A DNA stretch of 64,000 nt from the IMG/VR virus record IMGVR_UViG_3300037781_000208, positions 1 through 64,000 of that record. One strand, written 5' to 3'. Below are positions 1-51,077 of the stretch, in pieces; position 1 is the first letter of the stretch; the number at the start of each line of letters is the position of its first letter. A program made the translations under genes and the position numbers. This DNA comes from a virus. Taxonomy: Duplodnaviria; Caudoviricetes. Below the pieces are notes generated by a model that worked only from the letters and a program-made list of their open reading frames with translations, had not been told where the DNA came from and ran no database searches.

Positions 1-321
1 ACAGATTTCAGCGGCTTTTGTCTCGGCGCTTTTGGCCTGTGCTTCCAGTTGCTGAATCCGGGTTTCGGCTTCGGCATACTTCTCCTTTGCTTGCGCGAGG
101 TCGTGGTTTAGCTGCTTTTCCATTTCATGGGCAGCCTTCAGATCATTGGTCAGGGCAGTGATGCGGCCATTGGCTTCTTCCAGCATTTGACTGGCTGCAC
201 CCAAGTCGCCCCGGACCGCTTCGATCTCTTCGAGCGATTTGGTGTGGGCTCCAAGAAGGTTGGTATAAGCCTCACGAGCATCCGCAAGGGTGTTCAGTTG
301 ATCTTCGGTTACGAACTTCAT
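1..321 (-). CDS. Coiled-coil capsid-scaffold-like protein, truncated by window edge
   Basis: Hand translation MKFVTEDQLNTLADAREAY... is homologous to 53244-53711; its ATG overlaps the S49 stop (ATGA). Confidence 0.8.
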   Translation of the reverse strand, partial: MKFVTEDQLNTLADAREAYTNLLGAHTKSLEEIEAVRGDLGAASQMLEEANGRITALTNDLKAAHEMEKQLNHDLAQAKEKYAEAETRIQQLEAQAKSAETKAAEIC

Positions 322-1148
322 GCCCGTGGTTTCTTGTCAACCGTGCGTCGGACTAACTCGGCATAAGTATCGCCGTAAGTGCCCACATGATCGACGAGGT
401 TCGCCTCCTTGGCCTTGCGACCGATAAAGGTCTGTCCACGCATAGCATCCGGTCCAATGTTGCGGTGCTTCATGATGTGGTCGCGGAACTGAGCAAAGTA
501 CTCATCGACCATTTCCTGGAGGTGGGCGCGATGCGCATCTGTAAACGATGGTGGCCATGTGGCATCCTTCAGGTCGCCCCCGGTATGGGTTATGTAGGCC
601 GGCTTCCATCCCTGCTGTTCCCATTGGCCCGAAACGTCCACCAACGGCAGAATTGTGCCAATGCTCCCAACCTGTGCCGAGGGAGCCATGGCGATGAAGT
701 CGGCTCCGGCTGAAAGAGCGTATGCTGCCGAGGCTGCCAGTTCATCAATCCAAACAGCTTTCGGAGCTTTGATACGGGCCAACAGGTTTGCCGTCTCGAC
801 ATTCCCCGCCGCCATGCCCCCGGGTGAGTTCACATGAAAAAGGAATCCTCGGGCACCATCCTCCGCCGCGATCTGGACCTCATCCTCGATCTGCTCATAG
901 CTGGTGTTTCCACAGGAGCGTTCGATCTGGCTTAGGTGCCGCCCCAAGGTTCCCGTGATGTGAACATGGGCGATGCCGTTATTGTCGATCTCGGCATCTG
1001 GTCTCGGGTTCACAAACGGTGAGAGATCCAGATTGCCAGCCTCAGCGAAAATCCGGCTCTTAACAATCTGGTGCAGGGCAAGCCAGCCGTCGCTGGTAAT
1101 GTTCCATGCGGACCTGTATAAGGCGTTGGTAATGTGGGCGAGTCTCAT
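318..1148 (-). CDS. S49-family prohead protease (lambda gpC-like)
   Basis: VNSPGG, AASAAY, AQVGSIGT motifs; follows portal. Confidence 0.9.
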   Translation of the reverse strand: MRLAHITNALYRSAWNITSDGWLALHQIVKSRIFAEAGNLDLSPFVNPRPDAEIDNNGIAHVHITGTLGRHLSQIERSCGNTSYEQIEDEVQIAAEDGARGFLFHVNSPGGMAAGNVETANLLARIKAPKAVWIDELAASAAYALSAGADFIAMAPSAQVGSIGTILPLVDVSGQWEQQGWKPAYITHTGGDLKDATWPPSFTDAHRAHLQEMVDEYFAQFRDHIMKHRNIGPDAMRGQTFIGRKAKEANLVDHVGTYGDTYAELVRRTVDKKPRA

Positions 1149-1157
1149 GACTGAAAG

Positions 1158-1227
1158 TGGGACGAGGGGCAGGAATCGAACCTGCGTTGTCGGGTTATGA
1201 GCCCGACCGAATCCATATCACCCTCGC
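1158..1227 (-). tRNA. tRNA-Met(CAT)-like element with truncated D-arm
   Basis: Acceptor GCGAGGG/CCCTCGT, anticodon arm TCGGG-CTCATAA-CCCGA, T arm GCAGG-TTCGATT-CCTGC, encoded CCA; only 14 nt between acceptor and anticodon stems. Confidence 0.7.
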
Positions 1228-2651
1228 GCATCTTCCTCTTTCGCGCTGTCAACTGGTGGCTCCGTGCTAAGGACCATCTGGGTACCACTCGGCTTCCATA
1301 GCATTGAGACCGGAACCCCGTATTTTCCTGCAGCATCCAGAATTGCTCGGGCATCCTGTGCCCGGCGCTCCAGTTCCTCCCGGAAATCCATGCCAAGTTC
1401 CTGATAGTGGTCGGAGACCGTTTTTAGACCCGTCTCCACATCGGCCCGATTCTGTTGAGCCTCGCGGCCGGCGTCGACCGTAATGCGGCGGGGCGTTACC
1501 CATGCCACCTTGTTCCATCCCTTCATCGGAGGCAGGTCGCCACGGTCAATGGCATCTCCGATCACCCAGCCCCACGTCGGACGCAGGAACCGTTGAATCA
1601 GGATCAATTGCCGGTAGGAAAAGCGGCGGTCGGCCTTGGCCACAATCAACCGGACAGAGGCACCGCCCACCTTCGTTGGATCGAGGACGAACTCGTAAGG
1701 CAGCACACCCGCGCTGGAATCCCGCTTCAGATGCTCCAGGAAGCCAGTAAACACCGGACTTGGCCTGTTGGACTGAAAACTCTCCATCGACTCGCCCGGT
1801 TTCAGGGCAACCACCTTCCCGCCGACAATCTTTTGGATCGCAGTCGGATCGGTCTGTTCTGCCAATTCGCCCGTATCCGGTGAAACCCGAAAGTCGCCAT
1901 CGTCCTCGAGGGTGCCTTCCTGCCGCTTGATGATCCGAGAGACATCTTGGTTGTCCTTCACCGCATGCTTCTCAAGCGCGAGCATTTCCATCTCGTCCAA
2001 GATGTGATTGATCGAGTGCTGCATGGTCGGGTGATTGCGCGCTCCGCTGGCAAATTCCGGTTCAAAGACGTGCATGACCGCGTTGGCATAAACCGGACGG
2101 TAACTCGCGTCATCCTGCTGAACCATGTACGCCAAAGGTGCTCCGAATTCATCGAAGAGCACGCCATCAATGGAATCCGGGTCATCGGCTCCGGATCCCA
2201 CGCGGTGCGATTCCACAAGCTGGATGCGGGCGCGACCGAAGCGATCACGCACCTTTAGGACAAAGTATTCGCCGTCCACGTCGATGCCCCGGCAAACGAG
2301 ATTCTGACACTCCTCGAAGGAGAACCGGTTGGTGATCTCGGGGCGGTTGGCCCAACGTTCGAAGTATTCCTCGGCGGTTCGGTTCCATTCCGGATCTTGC
2401 GTTTGCGCCTGCGGTCGGATTCCATCCCCAGTCGAGTAGATCGCCATGTCTCCCACGACCTCACGGGCGAAGCCGCTGTTCTTGTTCAGGTACCGACTCT
2501 TGCGCACCAACTCACGCCGGGCGTGTGGAGTCAGTTCCTTTTTGGCGTCGCTAGGCGCGGCCCCAGGAACCCGGGAACGACGGGGCGAGTAATTGGCCGC
2601 TTCGTAAGGGGAAATCGACAGAATACGTGCAATGCGCTGAAGGATCTTCAC
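1218..2651 (-). CDS. Portal protein, lambda family
   Basis: Between head-tail joining gene and S49; ELVRKSRYL..NSGFA and YS..R-type motifs; GTG start. Confidence 0.9.
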   Translation of the reverse strand: MKILQRIARILSISPYEAANYSPRRSRVPGAAPSDAKKELTPHARRELVRKSRYLNKNSGFAREVVGDMAIYSTGDGIRPQAQTQDPEWNRTAEEYFERWANRPEITNRFSFEECQNLVCRGIDVDGEYFVLKVRDRFGRARIQLVESHRVGSGADDPDSIDGVLFDEFGAPLAYMVQQDDASYRPVYANAVMHVFEPEFASGARNHPTMQHSINHILDEMEMLALEKHAVKDNQDVSRIIKRQEGTLEDDGDFRVSPDTGELAEQTDPTAIQKIVGGKVVALKPGESMESFQSNRPSPVFTGFLEHLKRDSSAGVLPYEFVLDPTKVGGASVRLIVAKADRRFSYRQLILIQRFLRPTWGWVIGDAIDRGDLPPMKGWNKVAWVTPRRITVDAGREAQQNRADVETGLKTVSDHYQELGMDFREELERRAQDARAILDAAGKYGVPVSMLWKPSGTQMVLSTEPPVDSAKEEDARG

Positions 2652-2727
2652 GGCAGCAGCCGCGTGTCAAATAACCATAGTTTGTTTTATTGACACACTT
2701 TTTTAGATACAAACCTTTTACTGACTT

Positions 2728-3204
2728 ATGACAAAAAAATTAGTATTGAGTATCGTTGCCATTATGGCTTGTAAATCGTTCCTATCAGCAGAACGCTACG
2801 TAAATATAGGCGCAGCTTATGTTGAATCCATAGATAAGGTTGGTTTCACGACACAAGTTGGGTGGACTATAAACAATTCAGAAAGTTTTAATGCCGCAAT
2901 GGAATTGGACGTTTCTTATTACGAAAAATATTCAATCGATGTCATTCCAGCTATGGCAAATTTCAAACTTAGTACTAACCAATCTAACAATGTAAATGCT
3001 TACCTTGGATTTGGGTTTGGTGCGATAATTGGAGACGGTCCTCGGGGTACCAGTTATGAGACTTTTGCATTACAAGGTTTAGTTGGTGCCGTGTTTGAAA
3101 TTTCCGACACAGCAGATTACAAAATCGGCTATAGATATTTGTATGATCACAAACTCGATACCTACGACAACATAGGCGAGATGGGTATATCCTTTGCATT
3201 TTAA
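2728..3204 (+). CDS. Outer-membrane beta-barrel moron (OmpA/Ail/Lom-like)
   Basis: Signal peptide, alternating amphipathic strands, C-terminal ISFAF, AT-rich, opposite strand, own terminator. Confidence 0.7.
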   Translation: MTKKLVLSIVAIMACKSFLSAERYVNIGAAYVESIDKVGFTTQVGWTINNSESFNAAMELDVSYYEKYSIDVIPAMANFKLSTNQSNNVNAYLGFGFGAIIGDGPRGTSYETFALQGLVGAVFEISDTADYKIGYRYLYDHKLDTYDNIGEMGISFAF

Positions 3205-3223
3205 TTTATTAGGTCCTCAAAGC

Positions 3224-3262
3224 ACCCACCTTGCTATCCATAGTAAGGTGGGTTTTATTTTT
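3224..3262 (+). terminator. Intrinsic terminator of the moron
   Basis: ACCCACCTTGCTA-TCCA-TAGTAAGGTGGGT 13-bp stem followed by TTTATTTTT. Confidence 0.75.
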
Positions 3263-3509
3263 CGCAATACCCCACAAAGCCCGTCGCAGAGGTCTTGAGC
3301 GGCTTTCCGTAGGTCGCTGGGGCAAGTTTCTGGAGAGCTTTCTGACAGGCCGCTATGATTGTATGGATCTCGTCAATTCGGCGCTTGGTCACGCTCGAGC
3401 CATCATTGGCATAAGCGGCTAGGGTCTTCTTCAGTTCAGCCTTCTGGGCGGCGAGGATCTCTTCGACCTCGGCTTGGGTGAACCCGATGCTATAATCTAT
3501 CGCTGCCAT
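3255..3509 (-). CDS. Head-tail joining protein (gpW position)
   Basis: Start revised to MAAIDYSIGF; between terminase and portal; homologue at 56372-56626. Confidence 0.65.
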   Translation of the reverse strand: MAAIDYSIGFTQAEVEEILAAQKAELKKTLAAYANDGSSVTKRRIDEIHTIIAACQKALQKLAPATYGKPLKTSATGFVGYCEK

Positions 3510-5295
3510 CGGATGGTTCAACGGTGTCAACGCTCTCCCGTCCGATGATCTTGAGCATGGTCGCGCCAACGACTTGGAGACATTCGGCATCAAATAGGTG
3601 ATTCGGGCGCTTTCCGATCTGGACCCACATCCATTTGTCGCCCTTCTTGATACGGTGCTCAGATTCCATGTGCAGGAGGTATTCCTCGGGGATATCCTCG
3701 GGAATTTCCCAAGGGGGACTGCCATCCTGATTTCGGCGCAAGCGCGCAAGCGTGTCCTTCAGGTTTAAGTTCGACCAGTAATGCATCCGGCAAATCAGGC
3801 CGTTGGCGACATAGACCTTGCGAACCGGAGAGTAAAATCGTTGAACCCTGCGACCGGGTCCCACTTTGTGCATAAAAGTCGGGCGATGGTCGCCCATAAG
3901 AGCTGTCCAGCCATGACTGGCACACTGCCGATATACCTCGTAGCTGTTGTAACCGGCGTCCACAAATACAAGGCTTCCATGGATTTCAAAGCGCGCCTGT
4001 GCCCGCTCAATATCCTCCCACGTAAGAGCCCGTTCGCACCATAAAAGCCGCGAAGAGCCATCGGCACCCCATGCCCGGACAACCAGCCAAAAGTGATCCA
4101 TCTGTACGTCAACCGTGAGGAAGCGCAGTGGGACACATGTCAGATGATCAACCGGTTCATCCACCACAACATTTCCAGAAGTCAGGAACCCCTCCCCTGC
4201 CCACGGATCGCCCATCCGGTAGCCACTGCGGGTAATATCAGCCTTGAAGTCCTCCACATATTCCCTCCAAGGGAGTGCGAGGCGCTTCTGGTAGAACTGT
4301 TGTAGGAGTGTCGTATCGCCCTGCCTAGCGGCGGCCTTTGCCCGGAGGTATAACTCAGCCAACTTACCCCATGACATTGCACAAAGCGCGTTCCAATGAA
4401 ACCCGACGTTCTCCAAGGAGGCATTTGGATTGGTGCGAACAAATCTGCCTGTGGCGTTTAATTGCCGCCGCACAGCATCCGAATCCGGGAAGTAGTGGTT
4501 GCACTCACAGCAGCGCATGGAGGTGGTCGCTCGAACCTCCGTAAAATCCCATTCTCCATCGGATCCACGGGCTGATTTTGACCACTCTACGTTTTCCCAT
4601 TCAAAGGGCTGCCGGTGACCGCACTCTGGACAAGCAAATGTCCACTCGCGCATGTCGGTGGTTTCAAACTTCCGGTGGGTGTCATCATTCTCCTCGCCCC
4701 CTTGGGACATGAAGATGCACTTCCCAAGCCACCCGAACGCGGTCACGCGGGCTTCTGCTTCGGCCATGTGTCCCGTAGGCCATCTCCACGTTTCATCACC
4801 AATTAACCAGCGAATGGAGCGGCGCTGAAGGTTCGTCTTATTATGCGCCCCGAGAATCCAAAGCGTCATGCCATTGGCGAAGTGGATTGTGTGGTTGCGC
4901 TTCTTGTGCCGGTCGCGATGGAAGAGCAATTTAACCGGCTCGCATTCATCAAAGAGTTTTTGAATACGAGATTCTGACTGGTCCTTCGCGTCCTCGTCCG
5001 TCTGATCGAGCCAAAGGGTCGGTCCCGGTAAGTTTGCGATGATGTAGCAAAGCGTCAGCTCGGGCACCGTGGTCTTTGAGGACTGCACCGAAGCAAGGAT
5101 CGAGACGACCTTTACCCGTGGATCGACAATTGCCTCCATCACCTCGCGCACCCAGGGAGAGTTGTCCGAGCGGAAGCGGCCCGGCATCGGCGAATACGGG
5201 ATAGTGGCGATGTGTTCCTCCGCCCACTCCCAGGGAGGCCGTCGATCAGGAGGCTTTACGCCCTCCGCAAACATGCTGGCAATTTCACCGTTCAT
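3490..5295 (-). CDS. Terminase large subunit (lambda GpA family)
   Basis: PGRFR..SPW, SVQSSKT Walker A, LIGDE Walker B, Zn-finger CPECG, nuclease LTVDVQ, NHLFD; start revised to the ATGA-coupled ATG. Confidence 0.9.
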   Translation of the reverse strand: MNGEIASMFAEGVKPPDRRPPWEWAEEHIATIPYSPMPGRFRSDNSPWVREVMEAIVDPRVKVVSILASVQSSKTTVPELTLCYIIANLPGPTLWLDQTDEDAKDQSESRIQKLFDECEPVKLLFHRDRHKKRNHTIHFANGMTLWILGAHNKTNLQRRSIRWLIGDETWRWPTGHMAEAEARVTAFGWLGKCIFMSQGGEENDDTHRKFETTDMREWTFACPECGHRQPFEWENVEWSKSARGSDGEWDFTEVRATTSMRCCECNHYFPDSDAVRRQLNATGRFVRTNPNASLENVGFHWNALCAMSWGKLAELYLRAKAAARQGDTTLLQQFYQKRLALPWREYVEDFKADITRSGYRMGDPWAGEGFLTSGNVVVDEPVDHLTCVPLRFLTVDVQMDHFWLVVRAWGADGSSRLLWCERALTWEDIERAQARFEIHGSLVFVDAGYNSYEVYRQCASHGWTALMGDHRPTFMHKVGPGRRVQRFYSPVRKVYVANGLICRMHYWSNLNLKDTLARLRRNQDGSPPWEIPEDIPEEYLLHMESEHRIKKGDKWMWVQIGKRPNHLFDAECLQVVGATMLKIIGRESVDTVEPSDGSDRL

Positions 5296-5912
5296 ACTTC
5301 GGTCCATCCGCTGAAAAATTCGTAGGCCTGCTTGCGTGCCTCATCCAATGCCTTGGCATTGTCCTCCCGGATTCCCACAGCATCCTTGCCGCAGGAAAGC
5401 GGTGGCAACTCGTCCTCAAGGCGCTTGTGCAGGATGGCGAAGAGGCGGGCCATGCCTTCGATGATGTTTCGGCGAACCTCCTCCTTGTGCAGATAATCGC
5501 CCCGCTTGATGGCGAGCCTCAATTCGCGCTCCTCGATGTCCACCAGTAGACGCCGAGCTTTAAGCCCCTCTTGATTTGCCCCAGCAACGTCTTTCCCTCC
5601 TTTGAGTCCGTTTAACCTGACAAACTCTCGCCAAGCAGTCACATCATGCTGGCCATTCGGAAGCGGCTTCGGCGAGCCATCCATCTTTTTCCAGATGTTG
5701 ACCGTTCGCCTGGTCACCCCGAGAATTTCCGCCAGTTCGACAATCGTCTTGGCGTAGGCGGTCGTCTTGGAACTGCCGGATGCCCGAGCCTCGATCAGAG
5801 CCCGCTCAGCTGTGGTCAGGGTTCTGCCCGCACCGACTTTTCGAATCAGGTTCTCAAAATCTTTGTTGAGGACCTTCTGCGCAGCCTGTTCATCAAAATT
5901 TTGCTGTTCCAC
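5292..5912 (-). CDS. Terminase small subunit (Nu1-like)
   Basis: HTH (IVELAEILGVTRRTVNIWKK) plus coiled coil; ATGA-coupled to the large subunit. Confidence 0.8.
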   Translation of the reverse strand: MEQQNFDEQAAQKVLNKDFENLIRKVGAGRTLTTAERALIEARASGSSKTTAYAKTIVELAEILGVTRRTVNIWKKMDGSPKPLPNGQHDVTAWREFVRLNGLKGGKDVAGANQEGLKARRLLVDIEERELRLAIKRGDYLHKEEVRRNIIEGMARLFAILHKRLEDELPPLSCGKDAVGIREDNAKALDEARKQAYEFFSGWTEV

Positions 5913-5919
5913 ATCCGGA

Positions 5920-6615
5920 TTACTTCATGAGGAGCCAACCGGCAAATTGAAGGTGCCGGTAGACCAGTTCATAGCGGACAAATCCCACCCTTCGGAACAG
6001 TGCTTCATTCTCGGCCACGGTCTGGGGGAACATCTGACCCCGCAGGGCAGCCGACTTGTTTAGCACTTCCTGAGGACTGAGGCCATTCTCCAGCTTCATG
6101 TCCCAATAGAGCGACTGGGTCATGTCCTGAAACTCCGGAATGCTGCCGAGAACCTTCTCCACCACGAAGAAGCCGCCCCCACGCTTGAGGGAGTCATAGC
6201 ATACGGACAGTACCGTTTGCTTGGCTCCTGGACGCAGAAACTGGAGGGTGTAAAGGGATACTCCGTAGTCATGCCCGCTGATTTGGGTGAGCATCGAGAG
6301 GTCACAGAAATGAACGTCCACCCCCTTGGCCTTGGCCTGCTGGATCATCGCACGTGAGTTGTCGTAGCCGATGACCTTGATGTCCTTTTGGGGATTGCGG
6401 GATTGGATTCTCAGCAAGGTCTCCCCCGTAGAGGCCCCAAGGTCGATCACCGTTCCGCCATCCTGCAGGAACCAGTCGCCGAAACTCGCCGCCAGATCCT
6501 GAATCCGATCATAGTCCGGTACACTCTTTCGAACGTGCTCATCGAAATGCGGGGCGACCTTCTCGTCGAAGACCCAGTTGCTGCGGGTTGTTTCAATGCC
6601 TTGTCCGGCTTCCAT
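5920..6615 (-). CDS. CmoA-like class I SAM-dependent methyltransferase
   Basis: WVFDEKVAPHF...RKSVPDY N-terminus, DLGASTG motif, YTLQFL, FFVVEK resemble the CmoA family. Confidence 0.75.
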   Translation of the reverse strand: MEAGQGIETTRSNWVFDEKVAPHFDEHVRKSVPDYDRIQDLAASFGDWFLQDGGTVIDLGASTGETLLRIQSRNPQKDIKVIGYDNSRAMIQQAKAKGVDVHFCDLSMLTQISGHDYGVSLYTLQFLRPGAKQTVLSVCYDSLKRGGGFFVVEKVLGSIPEFQDMTQSLYWDMKLENGLSPQEVLNKSAALRGQMFPQTVAENEALFRRVGFVRYELVYRHLQFAGWLLMK

Positions 6616-6638
6616 GCCGGGTAAGCTGGTGTCAACGA

Positions 6639-7061
6639 TCAGCCCGGTAGCATCATCAGTTCCTGATCAGTTACCCGAACCGCCCCGATGCCGTACTGGG
6701 CGTACATTCCCCGTGTCATGGGATTGCTCTCCAGACCGAAATATCCGCCTTTCCCGTACTTTGGGAAAATGCGGTTTTTTAGCAGATGCTCCTTGATCTG
6801 GTGTGGCCGGGCGCTGATCTCCGCGAAGTAGGCATCCATTGGCGACCAGTCGGTTTTCTCCGCGATCCGCTGAAGGGTGGCTTCTCGGTACCGGTCTGGC
6901 CGGGCGGTGATGAGAATAACCTGATGCGGGCGCAGTAGATCGACCAGCCACTGCCGATACTCCTCCTGTTCAATCTGCCGGATGAAGGGTCGGATCGGTG
7001 GCGTGCCGTGCTTCGGTGAATTGCCCACAAGGGTGTAGTTAAGATCCAGAAGATAAATCAT
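6639..7061 (-). CDS. HAD-superfamily phosphatase-like protein
   Basis: LLDLNYTLV (DxN variant of motif I), LITAR motif II, ESN motif IV-like. Confidence 0.6.
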   Translation of the reverse strand: MIYLLDLNYTLVGNSPKHGTPPIRPFIRQIEQEEYRQWLVDLLRPHQVILITARPDRYREATLQRIAEKTDWSPMDAYFAEISARPHQIKEHLLKNRIFPKYGKGGYFGLESNPMTRGMYAQYGIGAVRVTDQELMMLPG

Positions 7062-8662
7062 TGCATTGCCGATTGAGGATTGACGGAACTTGGACGAAGG
7101 TGGATTTTCAATCGTGTCTCAAAGGCGGTTACCGCCTCATTTACCAAGCCCATTCGGGTGCCATCCGGGTATGGCAGATCAAATTCAAATTCAAGAGCCG
7201 CCCTGAGCCGATCCCTTTCGACTGGCAGGGCGTGGGCGCATGTAGCGGTGATGTTATTACTCATCTCTCTTACTTTGACGGAGCGAAAGAAGGGAGTCCA
7301 GAGCTGATGGAATTCATTTTGCGTGTGGTACTTTTGGACCTTCGGTTTATCCTGAAAATCCCCGATCCGGATACCGGTCTCGTAGTCCAGACGGAAGGCG
7401 ATATTTGCGGAGTTGGACTTGTTCAAAAAGGCTTTCCCGTTTACCTGCTTCCAGCCGGTTTCGCTCACACTGGAAGCGCAGGCATACACCTTTGTTTCAG
7501 GACGGCAAAGCGCCTGGAGGATAACCGCAATGTGCTCGCGATCCGATAGAAACGGTACGGAGTTGAGGACACTCGCCAAAAAGATCGAGGTCCATTCCCT
7601 CCCCTCCTCTACCGCCTTCAAGAACTCCTTGCAGATGGCGAGACTCTTCTCCTTGTCGATCTCGGATCGGGTGATGTGGTAAGGCTCAAAAGCCGCCACC
7701 TCAAATCCAGCCGCCCGGAGTATCTTGGTTTCAGTCAGATGTCCCGCTCCGAAGTCCAGGATGCGAGTGCCGTGTTCGCGGATCCATGCCGCATTCTGCT
7801 TGGCGTTGAAGATATCAAAGGTGTGACAGGGTCGCGAACCATGAACAGCAAAGATGAAGCCGTTGCCTAATTCCTCCCGGACGCGACGGGCACGCCTGAA
7901 TGAGTTGTAGCGCAGGAGGTCGTCGTACCGGCTCTCCACATCAAAATCCATGGAGAGCAGATTCATCATCGCTTCTGCGAAGGCTGCTTCCGCATCGGAG
8001 ACATACACCACCGGGGCGGTCTCAATGTTCTTCTCGGCGAGCATTTCCAGTCGACCAATCCCGTTGATGACCGTTCCGTCGCCCTTGCAAATAATCGGCA
8101 TGAGGATGCCATGGCGATGAAGGGTCCGGGCAAGGTTCTTGGCATACTGCATCCAGCGGTTGGAATTTGTCCGGCACAGTTCATTCACACTGAGCTGATT
8201 CGGGGTGAGGCATCGAATAAACTGGGGAGAATCAACCGCCTTGTCGGGAATGGCCTCTGCCAATCGGTGGACATCAAGGGCTGCCAGTTCGCGCGTGACC
8301 TTCTGCGGGGTGCTGTTCCAATCAAAGTCATTGGTCGCCCGATTGAAGACGATGTTCAGCGCCTTGCGTTGGGCCAAGTCCATCGGACGCGTCCGGAACA
8401 CCGGCAGCGCTTTAGCCCCCATCCTAGTGGCCACCAGATGGCGCTGATGCCCGGACAGAATCTCCCCATTTGCATCAGCGAAGATCGGTGCAAGGAAACC
8501 GAGTTTTCGAAGGGAGAGCTCAATCAGATCCAGTCGCTCGGGATCGGCACTGCGTGGATTATAAGTGCTCGGTTTAACCGCCTCAATATCTTCCAGTGCG
8601 AGGTGTCCAGCACGTGGCCTAGGGCCAGCGCCTCTTAATGGTTGCAAAGCCTCTTTGCTCAT
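7058..8662 (-). CDS. Tandem ParB/Srx-like domains fused to a class I methyltransferase
   Basis: YNPR...ILSGHQR; second INGIGRL; ILDFGAG and LASVLNSVP in the C-terminal half. Confidence 0.7.
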   Translation of the reverse strand: MSKEALQPLRGAGPRPRAGHLALEDIEAVKPSTYNPRSADPERLDLIELSLRKLGFLAPIFADANGEILSGHQRHLVATRMGAKALPVFRTRPMDLAQRKALNIVFNRATNDFDWNSTPQKVTRELAALDVHRLAEAIPDKAVDSPQFIRCLTPNQLSVNELCRTNSNRWMQYAKNLARTLHRHGILMPIICKGDGTVINGIGRLEMLAEKNIETAPVVYVSDAEAAFAEAMMNLLSMDFDVESRYDDLLRYNSFRRARRVREELGNGFIFAVHGSRPCHTFDIFNAKQNAAWIREHGTRILDFGAGHLTETKILRAAGFEVAAFEPYHITRSEIDKEKSLAICKEFLKAVEEGREWTSIFLASVLNSVPFLSDREHIAVILQALCRPETKVYACASSVSETGWKQVNGKAFLNKSNSANIAFRLDYETGIRIGDFQDKPKVQKYHTQNEFHQLWTPFFRSVKVREMSNNITATCAHALPVERDRLRAALEFEFDLPYPDGTRMGLVNEAVTAFETRLKIHLRPSSVNPQSAMQ

Positions 8663-9312
8663 ATGCCCAACCGTTTCTTGAGTTCTTTCAACACGGATTC
8701 CTTGTCGAATCCCACTTCCTGTTTCACGGAATCAATCCAGGTAAGGTAGTCCTCCTGAGGCAGTTTGAAGCGGTACAGTCCAAGGGCAATGGTTACGTCG
8801 CCCTTCTCCAAATTCTCCTCCTCGTTGACGGCGTCCTCCGGCTCCGCTTCCATGGGCCTTAGAAGGCTCTCCAAATCCGCATCCTCAAAACCGGTCAGGA
8901 GGGTATCGAATCCATCCACCTTGAGGTCATTGACCACGGATTCGAGAGAATTCAGGTCCACGGTCGCCAGTTCCGCGAGACGGTTGTCAGCAATGAGCAC
9001 CGCCATCTCATCGTTTTCGCTGGCAAAGTCCTGATAGTCCACCGGCACCAACTTCAGCCCAAGATGCATCGCCGCGGCGAGTCGGCCATGGCCGGCCACA
9101 ATGTGTCCTGAAAGTTTGGACACAGTTATTGGGTGGCGGAATCCGAAGTAGCGGATATTTTTTGCCAGCAGGTCAATCTGCCGCGACGGATGCGTGTTCG
9201 GATTGCGCGGGTTGGGCGTCAACTCATCCACCGAAACCAGCTTGTCGAAGCTGCACCAGACTTCGATTCCATCAGCAAGGGATTTGGCTTTGATCGCGGC
9301 ATTTCCATTCAT
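8659..9312 (-). CDS. Stand-alone ParB N-terminal-like protein
   Basis: PNPRNPNTH, IVAGHGRL, ADNRLAE; start revised from homology with 62023-62676 and the TTGACA motif. Confidence 0.75.
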   Translation of the reverse strand: MNGNAAIKAKSLADGIEVWCSFDKLVSVDELTPNPRNPNTHPSRQIDLLAKNIRYFGFRHPITVSKLSGHIVAGHGRLAAAMHLGLKLVPVDYQDFASENDEMAVLIADNRLAELATVDLNSLESVVNDLKVDGFDTLLTGFEDADLESLLRPMEAEPEDAVNEEENLEKGDVTIALGLYRFKLPQEDYLTWIDSVKQEVGFDKESVLKELKKRLGI

Positions 9313-9343
9313 GCCAAAAAGGCCGGTGTCAATTACGTCCCTC

Positions 9344-9985
9344 CTAGCCTCGCGCATCGAGGTGCGTTTCAAGATCGGCTAGGGCAGCTCGAACATTGCC
9401 TTTGCATCCCGCTGCTATTCGGGCGGCAACTTCATCCGTCGCACCCCACCCCTCCATGAGAAAGTCCCGGATTTCATCCGTTTCCGGAGCAAGCAATTTA
9501 ATCGCCTGGAAGCGGGTCTGAAAGCGTTCGGTCAGGTCGCCCAGATTCAGGTTACTTGTCCCGATGAAAGCCCGTCCTGCGGGCAGCTTGTCCAAGTAGG
9601 ACAGAAGCAGATCCTGAGCATCCCTTGAGCAGCGATCCAATTCGTTGACCAGTTTAACCGTCCACCCCGAATACAGACTCCCGTAATGCAGCTCGCGCAT
9701 CCACCCCTTCACCGTCTCGATGGTGACCAGTTTCCCGTTGGTCTCCTCGATGCTCCAGCGGGAATCGCTGAGGCAATTGGCCAGCATCTCAGCGATCGTC
9801 GTCTTGCCCACTCCGGGCGGGCCATAAAGGAGCACCTTGATCGGGGCGCGTCCATTGACCTTGGCCACTTCAGCCTTGGCGAGCAGTTTCCTGGCAACAG
9901 GTCCGGCCGGCCCAATTATCTCGTCTGGGCCTTTGGGTCTCCACGACAGCGGAGGACAACCCAACATGTTCGGTGGGACCTTCAT
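9344..9985 (-). CDS. Small AAA+ ATPase (clamp-loader/RarA-like)
   Basis: GPPGVGKT Walker A, VNELD Walker B variant, GTSN sensor 1, FQTRF arginine finger. Confidence 0.75.
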   Translation of the reverse strand: MKVPPNMLGCPPLSWRPKGPDEIIGPAGPVARKLLAKAEVAKVNGRAPIKVLLYGPPGVGKTTIAEMLANCLSDSRWSIEETNGKLVTIETVKGWMRELHYGSLYSGWTVKLVNELDRCSRDAQDLLLSYLDKLPAGRAFIGTSNLNLGDLTERFQTRFQAIKLLAPETDEIRDFLMEGWGATDEVAARIAAGCKGNVRAALADLETHLDARG

Positions 9986-10434
9986 ATCAGTCCCGCCTCC
10001 GAAAAGGAGTAGTACCCGATATTGCAGGGGTCGGCATCCTTGTCCCCGACAATGAGGTGGTCAAGGAGGTCGATTTGCATGGTCTTGGCCGCCTCTTTCA
10101 GTTGTCGAGTGGCCCGGATGTCCGCCTGACTCGGGGCAGGATCCCCGCTGGGATGGTTATGGGCCACGATCAGGGCTGTCGCATTACAGAGGATTGCCGG
10201 GCGGAGCACCTCCCGCGGATGAACCAGCGAGGCGGTGGCCGTTCCCTTGGTGATGGCTATGCGTCCGAGAGCACGGTTCTTGCGGTTCAACGGTATCACG
10301 AAAAACCATTCAACGGTGGGATCCGGATCGAACGCTCCCTCCATGTATTGAAAAACCCGCTCCGGGGAGTCTACCACCATGAGCGGGCCTGATTGCACGA
10401 GCTTGTACTTGAGGGAAGCCTCGTAGATTCTCAT
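9982..10434 (-). CDS. radC: RadC/JAB-domain protein
   Basis: VHPREV, AHNHPSGDPAPSQAD, LLDHLIV; start revised to the ATGA-coupled ATG. Confidence 0.9.
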   Translation of the reverse strand: MRIYEASLKYKLVQSGPLMVVDSPERVFQYMEGAFDPDPTVEWFFVIPLNRKNRALGRIAITKGTATASLVHPREVLRPAILCNATALIVAHNHPSGDPAPSQADIRATRQLKEAAKTMQIDLLDHLIVGDKDADPCNIGYYSFSEAGLI

Positions 10435-10919
10435 GCGCCCACCTCTCGACGCTCGTGCGCCCAACCGTCACGGCTGATCTTGCAAGAGAGTGTGTTCATC
10501 GGAATGTTCAATTCCTTGGCGATATCCTTGGGTCGCCTGCCCGACATATAAAGCGCCTTGGCCGCATCCCAATCCCTCCGTCGGGGACTGCCTCGCGTCT
10601 GAAATGGCGTCGGCTCCGGCGCCGCTTCCTCTTCATCGCCCTCTGACTGGAAGGCATCGTAGCGCTGCGCAGGTGGCGTCGGAATAGCTGGCCGAATCTC
10701 GGGCACTCTCGCTCCGGGCTGTCCTAAGATTTCCGCTACAATCTCTCGGATCAGCGGGACGGGGATTTCAGTGATCGAGAAGACCAGTCCGGTTAGGCTG
10801 GCTCGGCCCAGTTGATCCTTGAGGTGCTTTATCGCCGCCCCCCGCGTTCTCCCGAGATAGCGGCCCTCAAACAGGGTCTTATCGCCCTCCTCGCATACGA
10901 TCCAGTATAACTTATCCAT
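10431..10919 (-). CDS. C-terminal HTH DNA-binding protein
   Basis: DWDAAKALYMSG..PKDIAKELNIPMNTL..GW HTH; homologue at 63800-64000. Confidence 0.65.
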   Translation of the reverse strand: MDKLYWIVCEEGDKTLFEGRYLGRTRGAAIKHLKDQLGRASLTGLVFSITEIPVPLIREIVAEILGQPGARVPEIRPAIPTPPAQRYDAFQSEGDEEEAAPEPTPFQTRGSPRRRDWDAAKALYMSGRRPKDIAKELNIPMNTLSCKISRDGWAHERREVGA

Positions 10920-11208
10920 GGTGTTGTTCCTTTCGGTTTAGGTTGTTCTTTTTGGGGTTGTTCCCCATATCCTGTGGCTCCACCCAGCGGAGCAGGTGTC
11001 CCGGTGTTTCGGTCACCAGTCCCGTCCGTTTCAACGTCCCAACCAGTCGGGTGTAGTCATCCAGTGTGACCTTCCCCATCAGCAGGGCATAGAGTTCGCC
11101 GGAGGGCACTTCGCCCGCGTGGCGGATGATTTCAGCGAGGGCCTTGAGTGCCTGGAAAGCGGATTCCAGTTGGTCCCTCAGTTCAGTGTTTGATGGTCCT
11201 GTTGCCAT
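10912..11208 (-). CDS. Hypothetical winged-helix-like protein
   Basis: Helical, amphipathic ORF overlapping the next gene. Confidence 0.45.
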   Translation of the reverse strand: MATGPSNTELRDQLESAFQALKALAEIIRHAGEVPSGELYALLMGKVTLDDYTRLVGTLKRTGLVTETPGHLLRWVEPQDMGNNPKKNNLNRKEQHHG

Positions 11209-11356
11209 CTTATCACTCTGCCAGATTGGTGACAAAATCAAAGAGTAATCGTCGTCAATCTGTCGTTATTTTCCAACGACACTTTACTCTGGAATTGGGT
11301 GCTCACTCTGGCAAAGTTATGATCGGAAAAACCTGACAACGTAACGAAAGGAACAC

Positions 11357-11635
11357 ATGATCGACCTACTGAACATCCCACCAAAATTCCCACTCGGGAG
11401 GCTCCTCGCCACACCCGGTGCCATCGGTCTCGGGATCAACTTCGCCCCCTACATTAATCGTCACGTCCGGGGCGACTGGGGAGACGTGGATAGCGAAGAC
11501 TGGAAGCACAACGACGCTTCAATAGCGGAAGGAACGCGGATTGTCTCCGCCTACCAGACCGCCGCTGGGCGTATCTGGATCGTTACTGAGGCAGACCGGA
11601 CAGTGACCACCGTGCTGCTGCCGAGCGAGTATTAA
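11357..11635 (+). CDS. Conserved mobile-element hypothetical protein
   Basis: F.LG.L.ATPGA...RH..GDWGD...D...N...IWIVTEADR..TTVLLPSEY pattern typical of plasmid/ICE proteins; SD-like GGAAC. Confidence 0.75.
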   Translation: MIDLLNIPPKFPLGRLLATPGAIGLGINFAPYINRHVRGDWGDVDSEDWKHNDASIAEGTRIVSAYQTAAGRIWIVTEADRTVTTVLLPSEY

Positions 11636-11699
11636 CTCAACCTGAACGTTTAGCTTAGGCGCGACTTGATAACATTCTCGATTCAGCGGTGATGAACTT

Positions 11700-11960
11700 T
11701 CAAAAAGACTCGGGACCACGCCTTTTGAGTTCTGCTTGCTGCAGACGTTCCTCAATCGGCCATCTTGCAAATGCCAAGAAGAACAACATTACAATATTCA
11801 AAAGAGGAACCAACATCGTAATGCCCATGATAAAGGGGTATCCAGCTTTCTTAAAAATCAAACAAAACGGCCAACAATACAAAGCAATAAAGAGCACCGT
11901 CAAAATGAGTGCTTCTGGTCCCCCAATACCCTGAAGAAATGCCAATAAATTCATGTTCAT
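11700..11960 (-). CDS. Small membrane protein (moron)
   Basis: Two hydrophobic segments, KKAGYP..M...LVPLLNI motif; AT-rich. Confidence 0.6.
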   Translation of the reverse strand: MNMNLLAFLQGIGGPEALILTVLFIALYCWPFCLIFKKAGYPFIMGITMLVPLLNIVMLFFLAFARWPIEERLQQAELKRRGPESF

Positions 11961-12180
11961 GATGCAGCCTGTCTAATATTTGTCGAATGTAGATAAACAA
12001 CTGGGCTTTTCAAAAAGCGTTTCCACGTGTGCAGCAAGCACAAAGCGAAAAGTTTTCCAACCTTGAAAAGCAGATAGCCTACTACCTCATTTTTGTGGGA
12101 AATGAAAAAATCCCGATGTCTCTCAAACCGACCGGTCTGATAAGGGACCCAAAATTTGTAAAAGACTGGCAAGTAGACTT

Positions 12181-12936: not shown

Positions 12937-13423
12937 ACCGTTTACGCGTTGTCAACTGGCGCATTCCCAAAGCGGGTTTAATTCCAAGGGATTCAGTGAA
13001 CTCGACGCATCTTTTTGATACCGCCGCCCGGGTCACACCATGGCGCCTTGCGATCTCTGCCATGCTCTCCCCGCTGTAGTGCATATTGGTGACAAGCGAG
13101 AAACAGTCCATGGATAGACGGATGTTATCCTCCGATTCAATCAGGGCGACCAAGCGACGAAGAGCCGCCCATAGAGCTTCCGTATCCACCGCGGTGGTGT
13201 CGCTGTCCACGGTGTCAATCGCCTCATATCGTTCCGAATCCCTGACGGCGGCAGCCCGCTCGATGTATGTTTCCTGATCCGGCTTACCTGTTCGGTAGGT
13301 CGGTTTATCCGGACCGGTGATACCCAGCTTGGACATCTCCTTACGCTGGGCTGCGGTGAGGGTTTTCCAGGCTGCCTCGTACTGGGCGTCCCGGATGCGT
13401 TGCTGTTCTGCATATTCATTCAT
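12893..13423 (-). CDS. Sigma-region-4-like HTH regulator (Q-like position)
   Basis: SGESMAEIARRHGVTRAAVSKR HTH; ATGA-coupled to the ERCC4 gene. Confidence 0.55.
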   Translation of the reverse strand: MNEYAEQQRIRDAQYEAAWKTLTAAQRKEMSKLGITGPDKPTYRTGKPDQETYIERAAAVRDSERYEAIDTVDSDTTAVDTEALWAALRRLVALIESEDNIRLSMDCFSLVTNMHYSGESMAEIARRHGVTRAAVSKRCVEFTESLGIKPALGMRQLTTRKRYELRARNCHRKDAY

Positions 13424-25573: not shown

Positions 25574-26722
25574 TTATGAATCATTGGGCCCAATCCCAAA
25601 ATACCGCCCTGCATTCCCCGCCGTGGCCACCCCGAGATAGTGATCCCACAAAATTGCCTGATTCTTGTGACTGACCAGCAGGGCCGTTTTTCCCGGATCT
25701 CGGTGCAGAGCGACATGGTAGCTGACAAATGAATGTCGCAGGCAGTTCTTGGGCGGGGCCTTGGGCTGCAGCTTGCCCTTACTTGCCTTGGCGGCGGCTT
25801 TGGTGACCAGCAGGCCCGCGCGAGCGAAGGCAGCTTCCCTACGGCGTGCAAATTCCCGTGGAGACATTTTGAAAGCAGCCGCAGGCGTACGCTCCAGCCA
25901 TGACCAGAGATTTTCGGGGAGGCCCTCGATGAAGTGGCGACGGCCCTTCTTTGTTTTGGCGGCGGGGGTGAGGATCGCCCGGTTCTTAAAATCCAGTTCA
26001 TCCCATGCGAGGCGACTGATGGCAGATGACCGCATCCCGGCAAAGGCACCAAGGGCGAGGAGTCCGCAAATTTCCGGATCCACCTTCTCGTTTGCCCGGA
26101 ATAATGCCTCTGTCTCGGCAACCGTGAGAATCCCTGGCTCAGCCAGGTGGACCTTCGGGGTGGGAACGGCGGAGGCCGGATTGGATTGGGTCCATTCCTG
26201 CCGGATGAACCACTTGAACGCCCCAACAAGGTAGGTCCGGTAATGCTTTTTGCTCAGTGCCTGAAACGGCAGATCATGAATGAACTCCGAAATGTCCTGT
26301 GACGTTATGTCCCGCAATGGCTTCTCCCCGTACTTTGCAGAGAAACGCTCAAGCGCGCGCAGGATTTGCTTCTGATAGGCTTCATCCCGACCAGCCCGTT
26401 GCATTTCCAGAAGGTAGGCCTGCATCGCTTCTGAGAAAGTCCTGTCGCCCTCTGTGGCGTGATTGGCCAACCAGAATTCCGCCATTTCCACTGGATCCAC
26501 TCCAGGGAGAATTTCCGTCACCGTCTGCCACCTCCGGGCGAGCGCCTTATCGAACTGAAAGACCTCGGTGCCGTGTTGGGCGATCTCCTTGTTGAACTCC
26601 CGGACAAACTTATCCCGCTCTTTTTCGGTGGCAAAGAACCGGCTACGCGGCTTTCGATTGACCCACCAGCGGGCTTCCCACGGCCTGCGGCGGCCGTCAC
26701 GGTAATGCGCCTTGATTTCCAT
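25574..26722 (-). CDS. Tyrosine recombinase/integrase 2
   Basis: AGMRSS (R), KTKK (K), LRHSF (HxxR-like), VSH...HY (H, Y). Confidence 0.9.
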   Translation of the reverse strand: MEIKAHYRDGRRRPWEARWWVNRKPRSRFFATEKERDKFVREFNKEIAQHGTEVFQFDKALARRWQTVTEILPGVDPVEMAEFWLANHATEGDRTFSEAMQAYLLEMQRAGRDEAYQKQILRALERFSAKYGEKPLRDITSQDISEFIHDLPFQALSKKHYRTYLVGAFKWFIRQEWTQSNPASAVPTPKVHLAEPGILTVAETEALFRANEKVDPEICGLLALGAFAGMRSSAISRLAWDELDFKNRAILTPAAKTKKGRRHFIEGLPENLWSWLERTPAAAFKMSPREFARRREAAFARAGLLVTKAAAKASKGKLQPKAPPKNCLRHSFVSYHVALHRDPGKTALLVSHKNQAILWDHYLGVATAGNAGRYFGIGPNDS

Positions 26723-26761
26723 GGGTTAAGTCAAGACATGGTCGATACGCTCGGCAATCGC

Positions 26762-27988
26762 TTATCGCGGATTTTTCAGCGGAAAGATGTCGAAGTACTT
26801 CCCCGCGTCCTTCTGGTTAGCGATTCCGAGATAGTGCCGGTAGAGACAGTCCTGATCTCGATGGCTGACGATGAGGGCGGTCTTTCCCGGATTGCGGTGG
26901 AGGGCGACATGATAGGTCACAAAGCTGTGGCGCAGAGCGTTCTTCGGCGGGCATTTGGGTTTGATGTCCAACAGCGCCTCTCCCCTCGCCTCCCGTTTCG
27001 CGTTCTCTTGGTTGATGTCGTCCGCTTCGATGAGCAGCCCGGCTCTTTTGAACGCTTGCGCGCGCCGGTGGAGCATCTGCCGGTGGGTCATCGAGAAAGC
27101 AGCCGCAGGCGTTTTCTTCAACCATGCCCACAGATTCTCGGGCAGGTCCTCGATCCACTGGCGGCGCTTTTTCTTGGTCTTCTCGGCGGGGGTCAGGATG
27201 CCGCCCTGTTTGAAGTCGATTTCCTCGTAGTCGATTCGGGCGATGGCAGAGGACCGCATCCCGGCGAAGGCCCCGAGGGCGAGGAGGCCGCAAATCTCCG
27301 GGTCGATCTTCTCGTTGGCCCGAAACAAGGCGCGGGTTTCAGCGACAGTGAGGATCTCCGGTTCCTTGTCCTGAATCTGGGGCGATTCCACCCGCTTCAT
27401 CGGATTATCCGTGAGCCAGCCCTGCTTGTCCCACCATCCAAACGCCCCTTGGAAGTAGGTCCGCTTGTTCTTGATGGTGATCGGCCCGTAGGGAAGTCCG
27501 AACAGGTAGTCGCGTAGTTCTTCGGTGGAAAACTCCCGGACGAGGCGGTTTCCGAATTCATCTTCAAGATCAGCCAGTGCCTGGCGAACATGGCCAATGT
27601 AGCTATTGTTCCGCCCGACGTTCTCCATGCTCTGGAGATAGGCAGCGGCGGCATCACGCAGGTATCGATCGCCCAGCTTGGCGATTTTCCGTTGTTCCGC
27701 TTTCCAGAATTTGAAGACCTCCACCGGGTCCGCCTCCGGGGCAATCGCGATGGCCTGCTGCCACCTGATCAGTTGGTGTGGGGCGATGGTCGGAAGGACC
27801 GGATCCTGCCGCTGGGCGGTCAGTTTCAATTGCTCGATGAACTCGTCCCGGGCCGCCGCCGAGGCAAAGAACTTATTTCGCTGGCGCAGCTTGCAGTCCG
27901 AAGCCGAGGCGGAGGATGGAGCCGCTTCATACCATCGGGCGACGTAGGGCTTCTTCCGGTAGGGTTGGTGATCGGCGTGTATTCTCAT
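26762..27988 (-). CDS. Tyrosine recombinase/integrase 1
   Basis: Same catalytic set (AGMRSS, LRHSF, VSH, RHY); paralogue of integrase 2. Confidence 0.9.
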   Translation of the reverse strand: MRIHADHQPYRKKPYVARWYEAAPSSASASDCKLRQRNKFFASAAARDEFIEQLKLTAQRQDPVLPTIAPHQLIRWQQAIAIAPEADPVEVFKFWKAEQRKIAKLGDRYLRDAAAAYLQSMENVGRNNSYIGHVRQALADLEDEFGNRLVREFSTEELRDYLFGLPYGPITIKNKRTYFQGAFGWWDKQGWLTDNPMKRVESPQIQDKEPEILTVAETRALFRANEKIDPEICGLLALGAFAGMRSSAIARIDYEEIDFKQGGILTPAEKTKKKRRQWIEDLPENLWAWLKKTPAAAFSMTHRQMLHRRAQAFKRAGLLIEADDINQENAKREARGEALLDIKPKCPPKNALRHSFVTYHVALHRNPGKTALIVSHRDQDCLYRHYLGIANQKDAGKYFDIFPLKNPR

Positions 27989-29655: not shown

Positions 29656-29782
29656 GGGTGGTTCTCAAAAAAATTTTGACCCCCTACGGCGGAAAGAGTG
29701 CGGGCGCCTGACGGCCCCCAGAGGAAAAGAAAAAAGGGAAGTCCCGCTCACGCGGGGCAGTAAAGGGTAAAAGGACCAGAGG

Positions 29783-46224: not shown

Positions 46225-46242
46225 TCAATGGCCAGCGGCGTG

Positions 46243-46578
46243 TCAACGATTGCGCCTTACCGAAGCGCCCCAGCCAGAGAAGACCGAGCCCAGATCATCG
46301 GTACTGACTGAATCCTGCGGCTCCAGGGACTTTCCAAGGATGCGCCTGAATTGCTCCAGCTTCCGGCCAGCGTCCTTGTCCCACACGGCAAACGCCGCCA
46401 GTGCCTCCGTCTGAAGGGCCAGAAGAGCCTTGGTGGATTCCCGGCGATGATCCTCCCGGAGAATGAGCAGCACCTCCGGAAGCGACATGGTGGCGGCGAC
46501 TTCGCCTACTGATCGCCCGAGGATGATGGCGCACTGGGCACAAAGTTCCCCAAGGTCTGCTGCAGCTTCATTCCCTTT
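46243..46578 (-). CDS. gpT-like -1 frame extension of the tail chaperone
   Basis: Open -1 frame entered at AAAGGGA (46572-46578). Confidence 0.6.
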   Translation of the reverse strand, partial: KGNEAAADLGELCAQCAIILGRSVGEVAATMSLPEVLLILREDHRRESTKALLALQTEALAAFAVWDKDAGRKLEQFRRILGKSLEPQDSVSTDDLGSVFSGWGASVRRNR

Positions 46579-50703: not shown

Positions 50704-51077
50704 GCCGGAGAAGGCATGTCAACGTGGCAGCCTCTATCCTCGTAAGGGCATGCGTGGCGCAGGACCGGCATACGTGGCAACGCACTCATTGGGATGTAAT
50801 GCTCACCTTCACGAAGCTGTCTCCGCGTGCAAAGGGCCCAATGGCCACAGGGGTGCCAGTAAAGCACCTGCGCCTCTCCTGCCTCCACCTCAGTCGCCAC
50901 TCTCGGGACCAGATGCACCGGGGCGATCGTCGGCCTGACCTTCTCTTTGAGATTCGTCCATATCCATGCGGCGCGGGAGAAGTTGTAGCTGTTCGCCGTG
51001 TTGATCGGTGAAACCCGCTGGCAGAGCTGCCCGTCCAGCATGAACCAGCCACCAACCTGAATGTCGTCAAAAATCAT
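50700..51077 (-). CDS. Hypothetical protein in the neck module
   Basis: ATGA-coupled at both ends; start revised to MIFDDIQ. Confidence 0.5.
   Translation of the reverse strand: MIFDDIQVGGWFMLDGQLCQRVSPINTANSYNFSRAAWIWTNLKEKVRPTIAPVHLVPRVATEVEAGEAQVLYWHPCGHWALCTRRQLREGEHYIPMSALPRMPVLRHACPYEDRGCHVDMPSPA

Follow-up and report, generated by a model that had tools for sequence, protein, structure and literature searches.

The window analysed here, by which we mean the whole stretch of 64,000 nucleotides taken from IMG/VR virus record IMGVR_UViG_3300037781_000208 (Caudoviricetes), carries on its minus strand a portal gene, a tRNA-like gene, a spacer of 9 nt, the gene for an S49 prohead protease and a coiled-coil scaffold-like gene, in that order, and it is the tRNA-like gene at the portal-protease junction that concerns us. 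The source record is an 82.8-kb provirus that starts inside the head module of its first prophage, and the two copies of the gene found in the window are the only tRNAs it holds. A first-pass annotation, made from the sequence alone, had described a 70-nt cloverleaf with a CAT anticodon at this place, and both ARAGORN and Rfam call it at 1158-1227 on the minus strand. The details given there also hold for this copy (copy 1), namely the anticodon loop CTCATAA, three G-C pairs in the anticodon stem, the T-loop TTCGATT, 14 nt between the acceptor and anticodon stems, and an encoded CCA ending 9 nt before the protease ATG at 1148. ARAGORN calls both copies in the window, naming copy 1 a tRNA-Met with anticodon CAT, and Rfam RF00005 (gathering score 29) scores them at 43.5 bits for copy 1 and 45.1 bits for copy 2. 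Folded as a single sequence, copy 1 returns the cloverleaf as its minimum free energy structure, with a z of -2.3.

Copy 2 lies in the head module of a second prophage, which is about 80% identical to the first, and differs from copy 1 by one base in the D region. The two related head and packaging modules occupy positions 1-12000 and 53400-64000 of the window, 53.4 kb apart and about 77-89% identical, and they are two related prophages, lying in tandem, of a marine Verrucomicrobium. In copy 1 the final 10 nt of the portal gene, stop codon included, overlap the 5' acceptor strand of the tRNA, as the first-pass annotation had stated. This overlap is not a constant property of the locus, because an extra segment has been inserted upstream of copy 2 and the portal gene there ends 340 nt before the tRNA; loci L088-L090 likewise carry the tRNA without any overlap with the portal gene. 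The insertion holds most of a 78-aa open reading frame (ORF) on the plus strand (54736-54972), for which matching against Pfam and PHROG gave nothing, and it shows that the tRNA is a free-standing unit.

Relatives were collected with a protease alignment (A1) searched against viral contigs, species genomes and metagenomes, by exact look-ups of protease homologues, and from 401 genomes of the host order; a search of the viral contigs with a single protease protein had found 4 loci only, and the alignment was used instead. Numbers beginning with L denote loci and those beginning with G genomes, as labelled in this analysis; A2 is the alignment of 16 tRNA variants and R1 the model built from it. 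The protease homologues bear the names Oceanipulchritudo, Puniceicoccaceae, Opitutales and Ruficoccus, and the survey yielded 16 distinct tRNA variants, all in lambda-like prophages of Opitutales (Oceanipulchritudo, Puniceicoccaceae and Ruficoccus sp. ZRK36). Ruficoccus sp. ZRK36 is a cultured carrier; its protease, P0027, and the protease of L215 are identical. All 16 variants share one layout, in which the heptamer GTTGACA is followed after 18-20 nt by the tRNA (68-73 nt) and after a further 9-13 nt by the ATG of the S49 protease, and the protease identities among them run from 98% down to 65%. Scanning 37 genomes of the host family with R1 found the prophage-type tRNA only at the portal-protease junction, with a clear separation of scores: prophage copies at 91-96 bits (94.4 and 96.5 bits for window copies 1 and 2) and no host tRNA above 51 bits. 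In 98 loci from S49-protease phages that are less closely related, R1 found no prophage-type tRNA except that of L027, which was already known. A BLAST search with a 201-nt region gave no match in GenBank phages or complete E. coli genomes, and a scan of viral contigs for the T-arm and acceptor pattern returned mostly unrelated tRNAs from the tRNA clusters of large phages. Full-size initiator-type tRNAs do occur in related Verrucomicrobia phages elsewhere in the head module, in L081 (between scaffold and major capsid genes) and in L274.

The alignment of the 16 variants was used for the covariation check across homologous portal-S49 junctions that the first-pass annotation had proposed. Standard pairs fill 97.2% of the paired cells in A2, and the acceptor, anticodon and T helices are 98.8-100% paired. 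Changes on both sides occur at 7 of the 20 pairs, compared with 2.1±1.0 in shuffled alignments (0 of 500 reached 7) and at most 1 when the 3' partners were slid. The covarying pairs (1:72, 4:69, 10:25, the third D pair, 27:43, 28:42 and 51:63) represent all four helices, and RNAalifold, run unguided, recovered the acceptor, anticodon and T helices. A 7-bp acceptor stem, a 5-bp anticodon stem with a 7-nt loop and U33, and a 5-bp T stem with a TTCRAnn loop are all present. The tRNA is also better conserved than the neighbouring protease and portal DNA in every comparison made: between the two window copies it is 98.6% identical and the protease gene 78.9%, against L087 the values are 92.9% and 78.5%, and against L027 80% and 68%. 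Because a second copy exists, folding returns the cloverleaf, and the covariation over 16 variants exceeds all controls, the fold is not a product of chance, and the RNA is an evolutionarily maintained structure. The expectation that homologous phages would carry the structure with compensatory changes was thus borne out in these 16 variants, although some sister phages cleanly lack a tRNA at the junction.

The tRNA carries the marks of an initiator. Positions U33-C34-A35-U36 are invariant in 16 of 16 variants, with the anticodon loop reading CUCAUAA in 13 and NUCAUCC in a subclade of three (L092, L027 and L215). Three consecutive G-C pairs (29-31:39-41, columns 26-28 with 36-38 of A2) stand in the anticodon stem, two of them invariant and the third G-C in 14 of 16. 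At 1:72 the picture is mixed, with a weak or mismatched pair in 12 of the 16 variants (A-U in 6, G·U in 5, C x U in 1) and G-C in the remaining 4. The second pair of the small D stem, which by analogy numbering in the shortened arm is purine 11 : pyrimidine 24, is A-U in 15 variants and G-C in one. For comparison, host initiator tRNAs were read from five genomes, where they were found by BLAST with the L081 tRNA; searches with short anticodon-arm patterns had given noise or nothing. The phage tRNA has in common with them U8-G9, G10-A11, A11:U24, the CAU anticodon in a CUCAUAA loop, a G-C-rich lower anticodon stem and the unusual discriminator C73 followed by CCA. At 1:72, where most variants have a weak or mismatched pair, the host initiators have U-A or C x A. 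Host elongator tRNA-Met, by contrast, has C11:G24 and A73. Taken together, these identity marks place the phage tRNA with the Opitutales initiators and not with the elongators. It differs from the host initiators in length (70 nt compared to 77), in its D-arm (2-4 bp with a loop of 4-7 nt) and 4-nt variable loop, in its T-loop (TTCGAnT compared to TTCAAAT), in having three G-C pairs where the host has two plus an A-U, in the inverted acceptor pairs 2:71 and 3:70, and in being encoded in a prophage head operon.

The D-arm had been described as truncated, which is correct as to its being shortened and needs the qualification that the arm is still there. The D region measures 12-16 nt across the variants and holds a stem of 2-4 bp (GA[N]/[N]UC, with four pairs in L092) and its short loop; 85% of the D-stem cells are paired, the third pair being often broken. 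It falls outside the canonical D-arm (a stem of 3-4 bp, a loop of 7-11 nt and connector bases 8 and 9), and the Rfam alignment flags its pairs as non-standard. The D-loop always keeps an A and GG, and in normal D-loops these residues make the U8-A14 and D-loop/T-loop contacts. The arm is miniaturised, not deleted. Some animal mitochondrial tRNAs are also D-arm-reduced, often lacking D-T loop contacts. The phage tRNA resembles them in that only its D region is shortened, the acceptor, anticodon and T arms being intact. It differs in that a small D hairpin remains, the T-loop is canonical, and residues like A14 and like G18-G19 are still present.

In the protease tree, tRNA-bearing loci stand in both main ingroup clades and tRNA-less loci (L259/L262, L264, L269/L270 and L271) are nested among them. 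Since the tRNAs share sequence and position, a single gain is favoured, and the simplest history would be one gain followed by losses or recombinational replacement; the gene is thus accessory, and under purifying selection where it is present. Other sequences occupy the same junction in some relatives. In one subclade, that of L019 (2370-2500) and L267 (1380-1500), the position of the tRNA is filled by about 110 nt with four short hairpins, the last of which keeps the GCAGG/CCTGC stem of the tRNA T arm. L218 carries at 969-1048, on the minus strand, a different tRNA-like sequence with a full 4-bp D-stem, the loop CTCATAA and C73-CCA, 12 nt from the ATG; its anticodon stem has two C x C mismatches, and neither ARAGORN nor Rfam calls it. 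No known Rfam family matched the L218 sequence or the L267 hairpins at an E of 0.1 or better. Besides the insert at window copy 2, genes on the opposite strand lie at this junction in L264/L265 and L271, so that it is a hot spot for the insertion of morons. Morons of toxin-antitoxin type (BrnT, ParE-like, and HepT with MNT nucleotidyltransferase) are found between the protease/scaffold and capsid genes of relatives. A tRNA look-alike and a further compact tRNA were seen in other settings. The look-alike, on an AT-rich phage contig (L109, 2967-3034, minus strand) and in another gene context, is 68 nt long and has GTTGACA upstream; it shares the acceptor and T arm, its loop contains CAT, and there is almost no D region. 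In the same host family, L291 (G395:C105:3657-6729) carries at 1501-1570 a second compact-D tRNA-Met (Rfam 36 bits) with a 4-bp D stem, a 4-nt loop, A73 and an elongator-like anticodon stem, in a different mobile element, where six ordinary tRNAs form a cluster next to it.

Table 1. Positions of the tRNA copies, their parts, the adjoining genes and the GTTGACA motif in the window, with morons of related loci.
Feature	Position	Strand	Remarks
tRNA-Met(CAU), copy 1	1158-1227	-	70 nt including encoded CCA; mini D-arm
Copy 1, acceptor stem	1227-1221 paired with 1168-1162	-	
Copy 1, D region	1220-1207	-	
Copy 1, anticodon stem	1206-1202 paired with 1194-1190	-	
Copy 1, anticodon loop	1201-1195	-	anticodon 1199-1197
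Copy 1, variable region	1189-1186	-	
Copy 1, T arm	1185-1169	-	
Copy 1, discriminator C and CCA	1161; 1160-1158	-	
tRNA, copy 2	54545-54614	-	second prophage head module
GTTGACA, copy 1	1247-1253	-	19 nt upstream of tRNA 5' end; inside last portal codons (Val-Asp)
GTTGACA, copy 2	54634-54640	-	non-coding; portal ORF ends at 54955
Spacer from CCA to protease ATG	1149-1157	-	9 nt; pyrimidine-rich; no Shine-Dalgarno
28-codon ORF (P0110)	1145-1231	-	start ATG 15 nt after TTGACA; TGA overlaps protease ATG
S49 prohead protease, copy 1	318-1148	-	276 aa; Pfam PF01343, 1.1e-22
S49 prohead protease, copy 2	53708-54535	-	275 aa; Pfam PF01343, 8.1e-24
Lambda-family portal, copy 1	1218-2651	-	477 aa; Pfam PF05136, 8.3e-41
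Portal, copy 2	54955-56346	-	463 aa; Pfam PF05136
Insertion, copy 2 only	54641-54954		about 314 nt; between portal and GTTGACA
Gene-start motif, examples	335-341, 1247-1253, 2665-2670, 6630-6636, 12950-12956, 46241-46247, 50717-50723, 52231-52237, 53228-53234, 53725-53731, 56360-56365, 60087-60093	-	
Toxin-antitoxin-type morons of relatives	L261 2826-3342; L262 2944-3409; L267 2306-2936		

The GTTGACA that precedes the tRNA is a feature separate from it. It is invariant in 16 of 16 tRNA-bearing variants, 18-20 nt from the tRNA, and both motif and spacing are kept even where they are non-coding (window copy 2 and L088-L090). At the position 14 nt past the motif, 13 of the 14 tRNA-bearing variants read by eye have a purine. 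The window holds 17 copies of GTTGACA, all on the gene strand, where 6.5±2.8 would be expected over both strands, and of its 30 copies of TTGACA, 16 are followed at a distance of 13-16 nt by the start of a long ORF. Written in full, the motif is (G)TTGACA-N13/14-(G)GC-ATG, and the genes behind it, which include those for the portal, scaffold, major head protein and a methyltransferase, all lack a Shine-Dalgarno (SD) sequence and start, as late genes do here, with ATG or GTG, so that no recoded start codon is seen. The same genes are preceded by the motif in relatives whose protease identity is as low as about 40%, and relatives without the tRNA have it directly before the protease ATG at N13-16; about 311 kb of host DNA, counted on both strands, showed no such peak of the motif before starts. 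TTGACA is not a promoter or ribosome-binding context private to the 28-codon ORF that covers the tRNA, being found throughout the phage 13-14 nt upstream of many late-gene starts.

Several explanations of the motif were tried. In a sigma-70 promoter the -10 hexamer lies 16-18 nt downstream of the -35 element and the start site about 7 nt further; the motif is not a -35 element because it stands 13-14 nt from many start codons, which is too close, and a scan for promoters gave none at this place. The variable loop of the tRNA can pair with the motif (CAAC with GUUG) in the window, but this match is not conserved in the other variants. As for pairing with the 3' tail of 16S rRNA, the host tail is an ordinary CCUCC (anti-Shine-Dalgarno) and the only exact complement lies internally at about position 433. 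The motif may promote leaderless messages, mark a site of RNA processing or act as a signal in translation. Since the motif serves a tRNA as well as protein genes, it more likely acts on RNA synthesis or processing than on the placement of ribosomes.

Our preferred explanation, which we hold with only moderate confidence, is that the element is a working phage tRNA of the initiator type, which is produced within the late head transcript and freed from it by RNase P together with a 3' nuclease. An initiator-type tRNA-Met(CAU) gene with a reduced D-arm would have arisen once in a clade of lambda-like Opitutales prophages and is selected there yet dispensable, because sister phages have lost it. 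From its place on the late strand, behind GTTGACA and 9-13 nt before the protease ATG, we infer that the tRNA is transcribed as part of the head-operon RNA and cut out of it, with RNase P acting at the 5' end and a 3' nuclease just after the CCA. Once aminoacylated and used in initiation, it could serve as an extra, perhaps nuclease-insensitive, initiator tRNA during the synthesis of abundant head proteins; as a side effect, its excision would leave the protease-scaffold-capsid mRNA with a leader of 9-13 nt and no SD. Several observations weigh against this explanation. Rfam scores of 43-45 bits are on the low side among bacterial tRNAs, and the D-arm does not fall within the usual range; the subclade of L092, L027 and L215 has C37-C38 in the anticodon loop and G1-C72; the CCA is out of register in L092, L215 and L272; the anticodon stem of L215 has an A x C mismatch; and the acceptor pairs 2:71 and 3:70 have the opposite orientation to those of the host initiator, which makes formylation uncertain. 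The tRNA has furthermore been lost or replaced several times, with at least 3 changes forced by well-supported branches of the protease tree, and it is therefore not essential.

The alternative that survives best, although we think it unlikely, is that the structure is a processing signal acting in cis ('tRNA punctuation') that is never charged, the transcript being cut between the portal gene and the protease-scaffold-capsid genes. Such cutting would uncouple the stabilities of the two mRNAs and produce a protease mRNA with a short leader; the portal is present in 12 copies per virion and the protease, scaffold and capsid proteins in hundreds of copies. Arrangements of this kind reportedly exist in bacteria, where Li and Altman are said to have described in 2003 tRNA-mRNA co-transcripts, with the thrU-tufB operon of E. 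coli as an example, and RNase P-dependent processing between cistrons. The prophage locus is like thrU-tufB in having a tRNA within an operon whose excision may set the 5' end of the downstream mRNA, and unlike it in that the downstream leader is only 9-13 nt and has no SD. In keeping with a processing signal, the acceptor stem, T arm and CCA are the most invariant parts and are those that RNase P needs, two spacings are kept, one of 9-13 nt between the 3' end and the ATG and one of 18-20 nt between the motif and the 5' end, the protease has no SD, and L218 keeps the acceptor, a T-like arm, the CCA and the position despite its broken anticodon stem. An RNase P substrate needs no anticodon arm, however, and here the arm covaries. 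The invariant U33-CAU, the G-C pairs, the A and GG of the D-loop and the canonical T-loop are not needed by a pure RNase P substrate, and the initiator-specific marks common to the phage tRNA and the host initiator would be left unexplained. Moreover, tRNA-less sisters express this operon without an SD and with the motif immediately in front of the ATG, and no processing element is required there. It is because of the selected anticodon arm and the host-initiator identity marks that we prefer an initiator tRNA to a processing element. The same sisters led us to reject the idea that the tRNA replaces an SD, as only a more distant clade has one before the protease; the translation switch put forward in the first-pass annotation is thus not needed to account for the missing SD.

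Less probable still is that the RNA is a decoy, or a nuclease-resistant substitute, directed against a host defence that attacks initiator tRNA or against other tRNA-binding effectors, either soaking up the nuclease or replacing the cleaved host tRNA. VapC-type PIN toxins cleave the anticodon stem-loop of tRNA-fMet, and the anticodon arm of the phage tRNA is initiator-like and conserved. One subclade changes loop positions 37-38 from AA to CC, beside the published VapC cleavage site, and the head modules of relatives are rich in the toxin-antitoxin morons listed above. Phage tRNAs with changes in the anticodon loop have been proposed to evade tRNases (PMC10264068). Against a decoy, no tRNA-targeting nuclease was identified in these hosts, and the loop of the main clade is the same as that of the host initiator. 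A resistant substitute would in any case still be a working tRNA, and to that extent this idea overlaps with the initiator tRNA that we favour.

It is also conceivable, if doubtful, that the compact initiator tRNA and the starts of the form GTTGACA-N13-ATG together make up a private system for near-leaderless late messages without SD. The tRNA would then be released from the very transcript that it serves, once more by tRNA punctuation, and would drive or favour initiation there. In the extreme form of this idea, the tRNA would stay in the transcript and bring into the P site, in cis, the AUG to which it is linked at a distance of 13 nt from the acceptor stem.

We find it quite improbable that the element is a decaying relic (a pseudo-tRNA) of a once normal phage tRNA gene with no present function. 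The shrunken D-arm, the low Rfam score and the repeated loss would all be expected of a relic, as would the degenerate forms in L218 and in the hairpins of L019/L267 and the out-of-register CCA of some variants. Yet the tRNA is conserved above the neighbouring protein genes across protease identities of 98% to 65%, and seven double-sided compensatory pairs are not what neutral decay yields.

The 28-codon ORF was correctly described for copy 1, but its translation as a means of coupling ribosomes to the protease start through the TGA/ATG, with the tRNA shape secondary, can be dismissed as very improbable: the SD-like purine run, ATG and ATGA overlap are present in both window copies, whereas the start codon and overlap are conserved in only 6 of 17 homologous loci, the ATGA is confined to loci with AGA as the second protease codon, and the substitutions track RNA pairing, being compensatory in the stems and not codon-like. 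In four other loci the frame stops 5 nt ahead of the protease ATG, and in the remaining loci there is no start, no stop near the protease ATG or another register. As a conserved, protease-coupled feature the ORF is therefore rejected, and in our judgement it merely arises from the sequence of the tRNA together with the C-terminal codons of the portal. What stands of the original proposal is the selected, tRNA-shaped RNA with initiator features, for which a mini-initiator or a decoy still leads; its nesting in a coupled ORF does not.

A role in lysogeny was considered as well. PMC10865867 describes tRNA-dependent lysogeny, in which integration at the attachment site disrupts a host tRNA gene and the tRNA of the phage takes over from it. 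This was rejected for the present prophages, as the window contains no fragment of a host initiator and the initiator gene of lysogen G001 is intact and lies on a different contig.

Phage tRNAs are common and their purpose is debated, and neither initiator tRNAs in phages nor tRNAs embedded in operons are new. The window tRNA resembles those of L081, L274 and the clusters of large phages in being phage-borne on the late-gene strand, L081 having its own inside the head module. Those tRNAs have normal D-arms and ordinary scores, whereas that of the window is miniaturised and keeps a constant place between portal and protease, with a start codon 9-13 nt away. Our literature search found no description of a D-arm-miniaturised initiator-type tRNA at this junction. 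To our knowledge, no bacterial or phage tRNA with a strongly reduced D-arm has been described that is demonstrably under selection, and we know of no specialised translation factors for D-arm-reduced tRNAs in bacterial viruses. The element shows how small a D-arm can get outside mitochondria, and since a tRNA can stand in for a protein gene behind GTTGACA, it also informs on the mode of action of the motif. With a cultured lysogen in the clade, Ruficoccus sp. ZRK36, charging, formylation, processing and fitness effects are directly testable.

Two other regions of the window deserve mention. Between the terminase and portal genes, 2728-3253 on the plus strand holds a 158-aa ORF with a weak match, below threshold, to an outer-membrane beta-barrel (PF13505), followed by a strong terminator-like hairpin (3224-3253 plus a T run); the region is a probable lysogenic-conversion moron. 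At 25574-27988 on the minus strand lies a tandem pair of paralogues that share 73% identity over 285 nt; one of them has weak tyrosine-recombinase matches, and adjoining the pair are two genes of the FGE-sulfatase family (28675-30745). This neighbourhood is the likely prophage boundary region.

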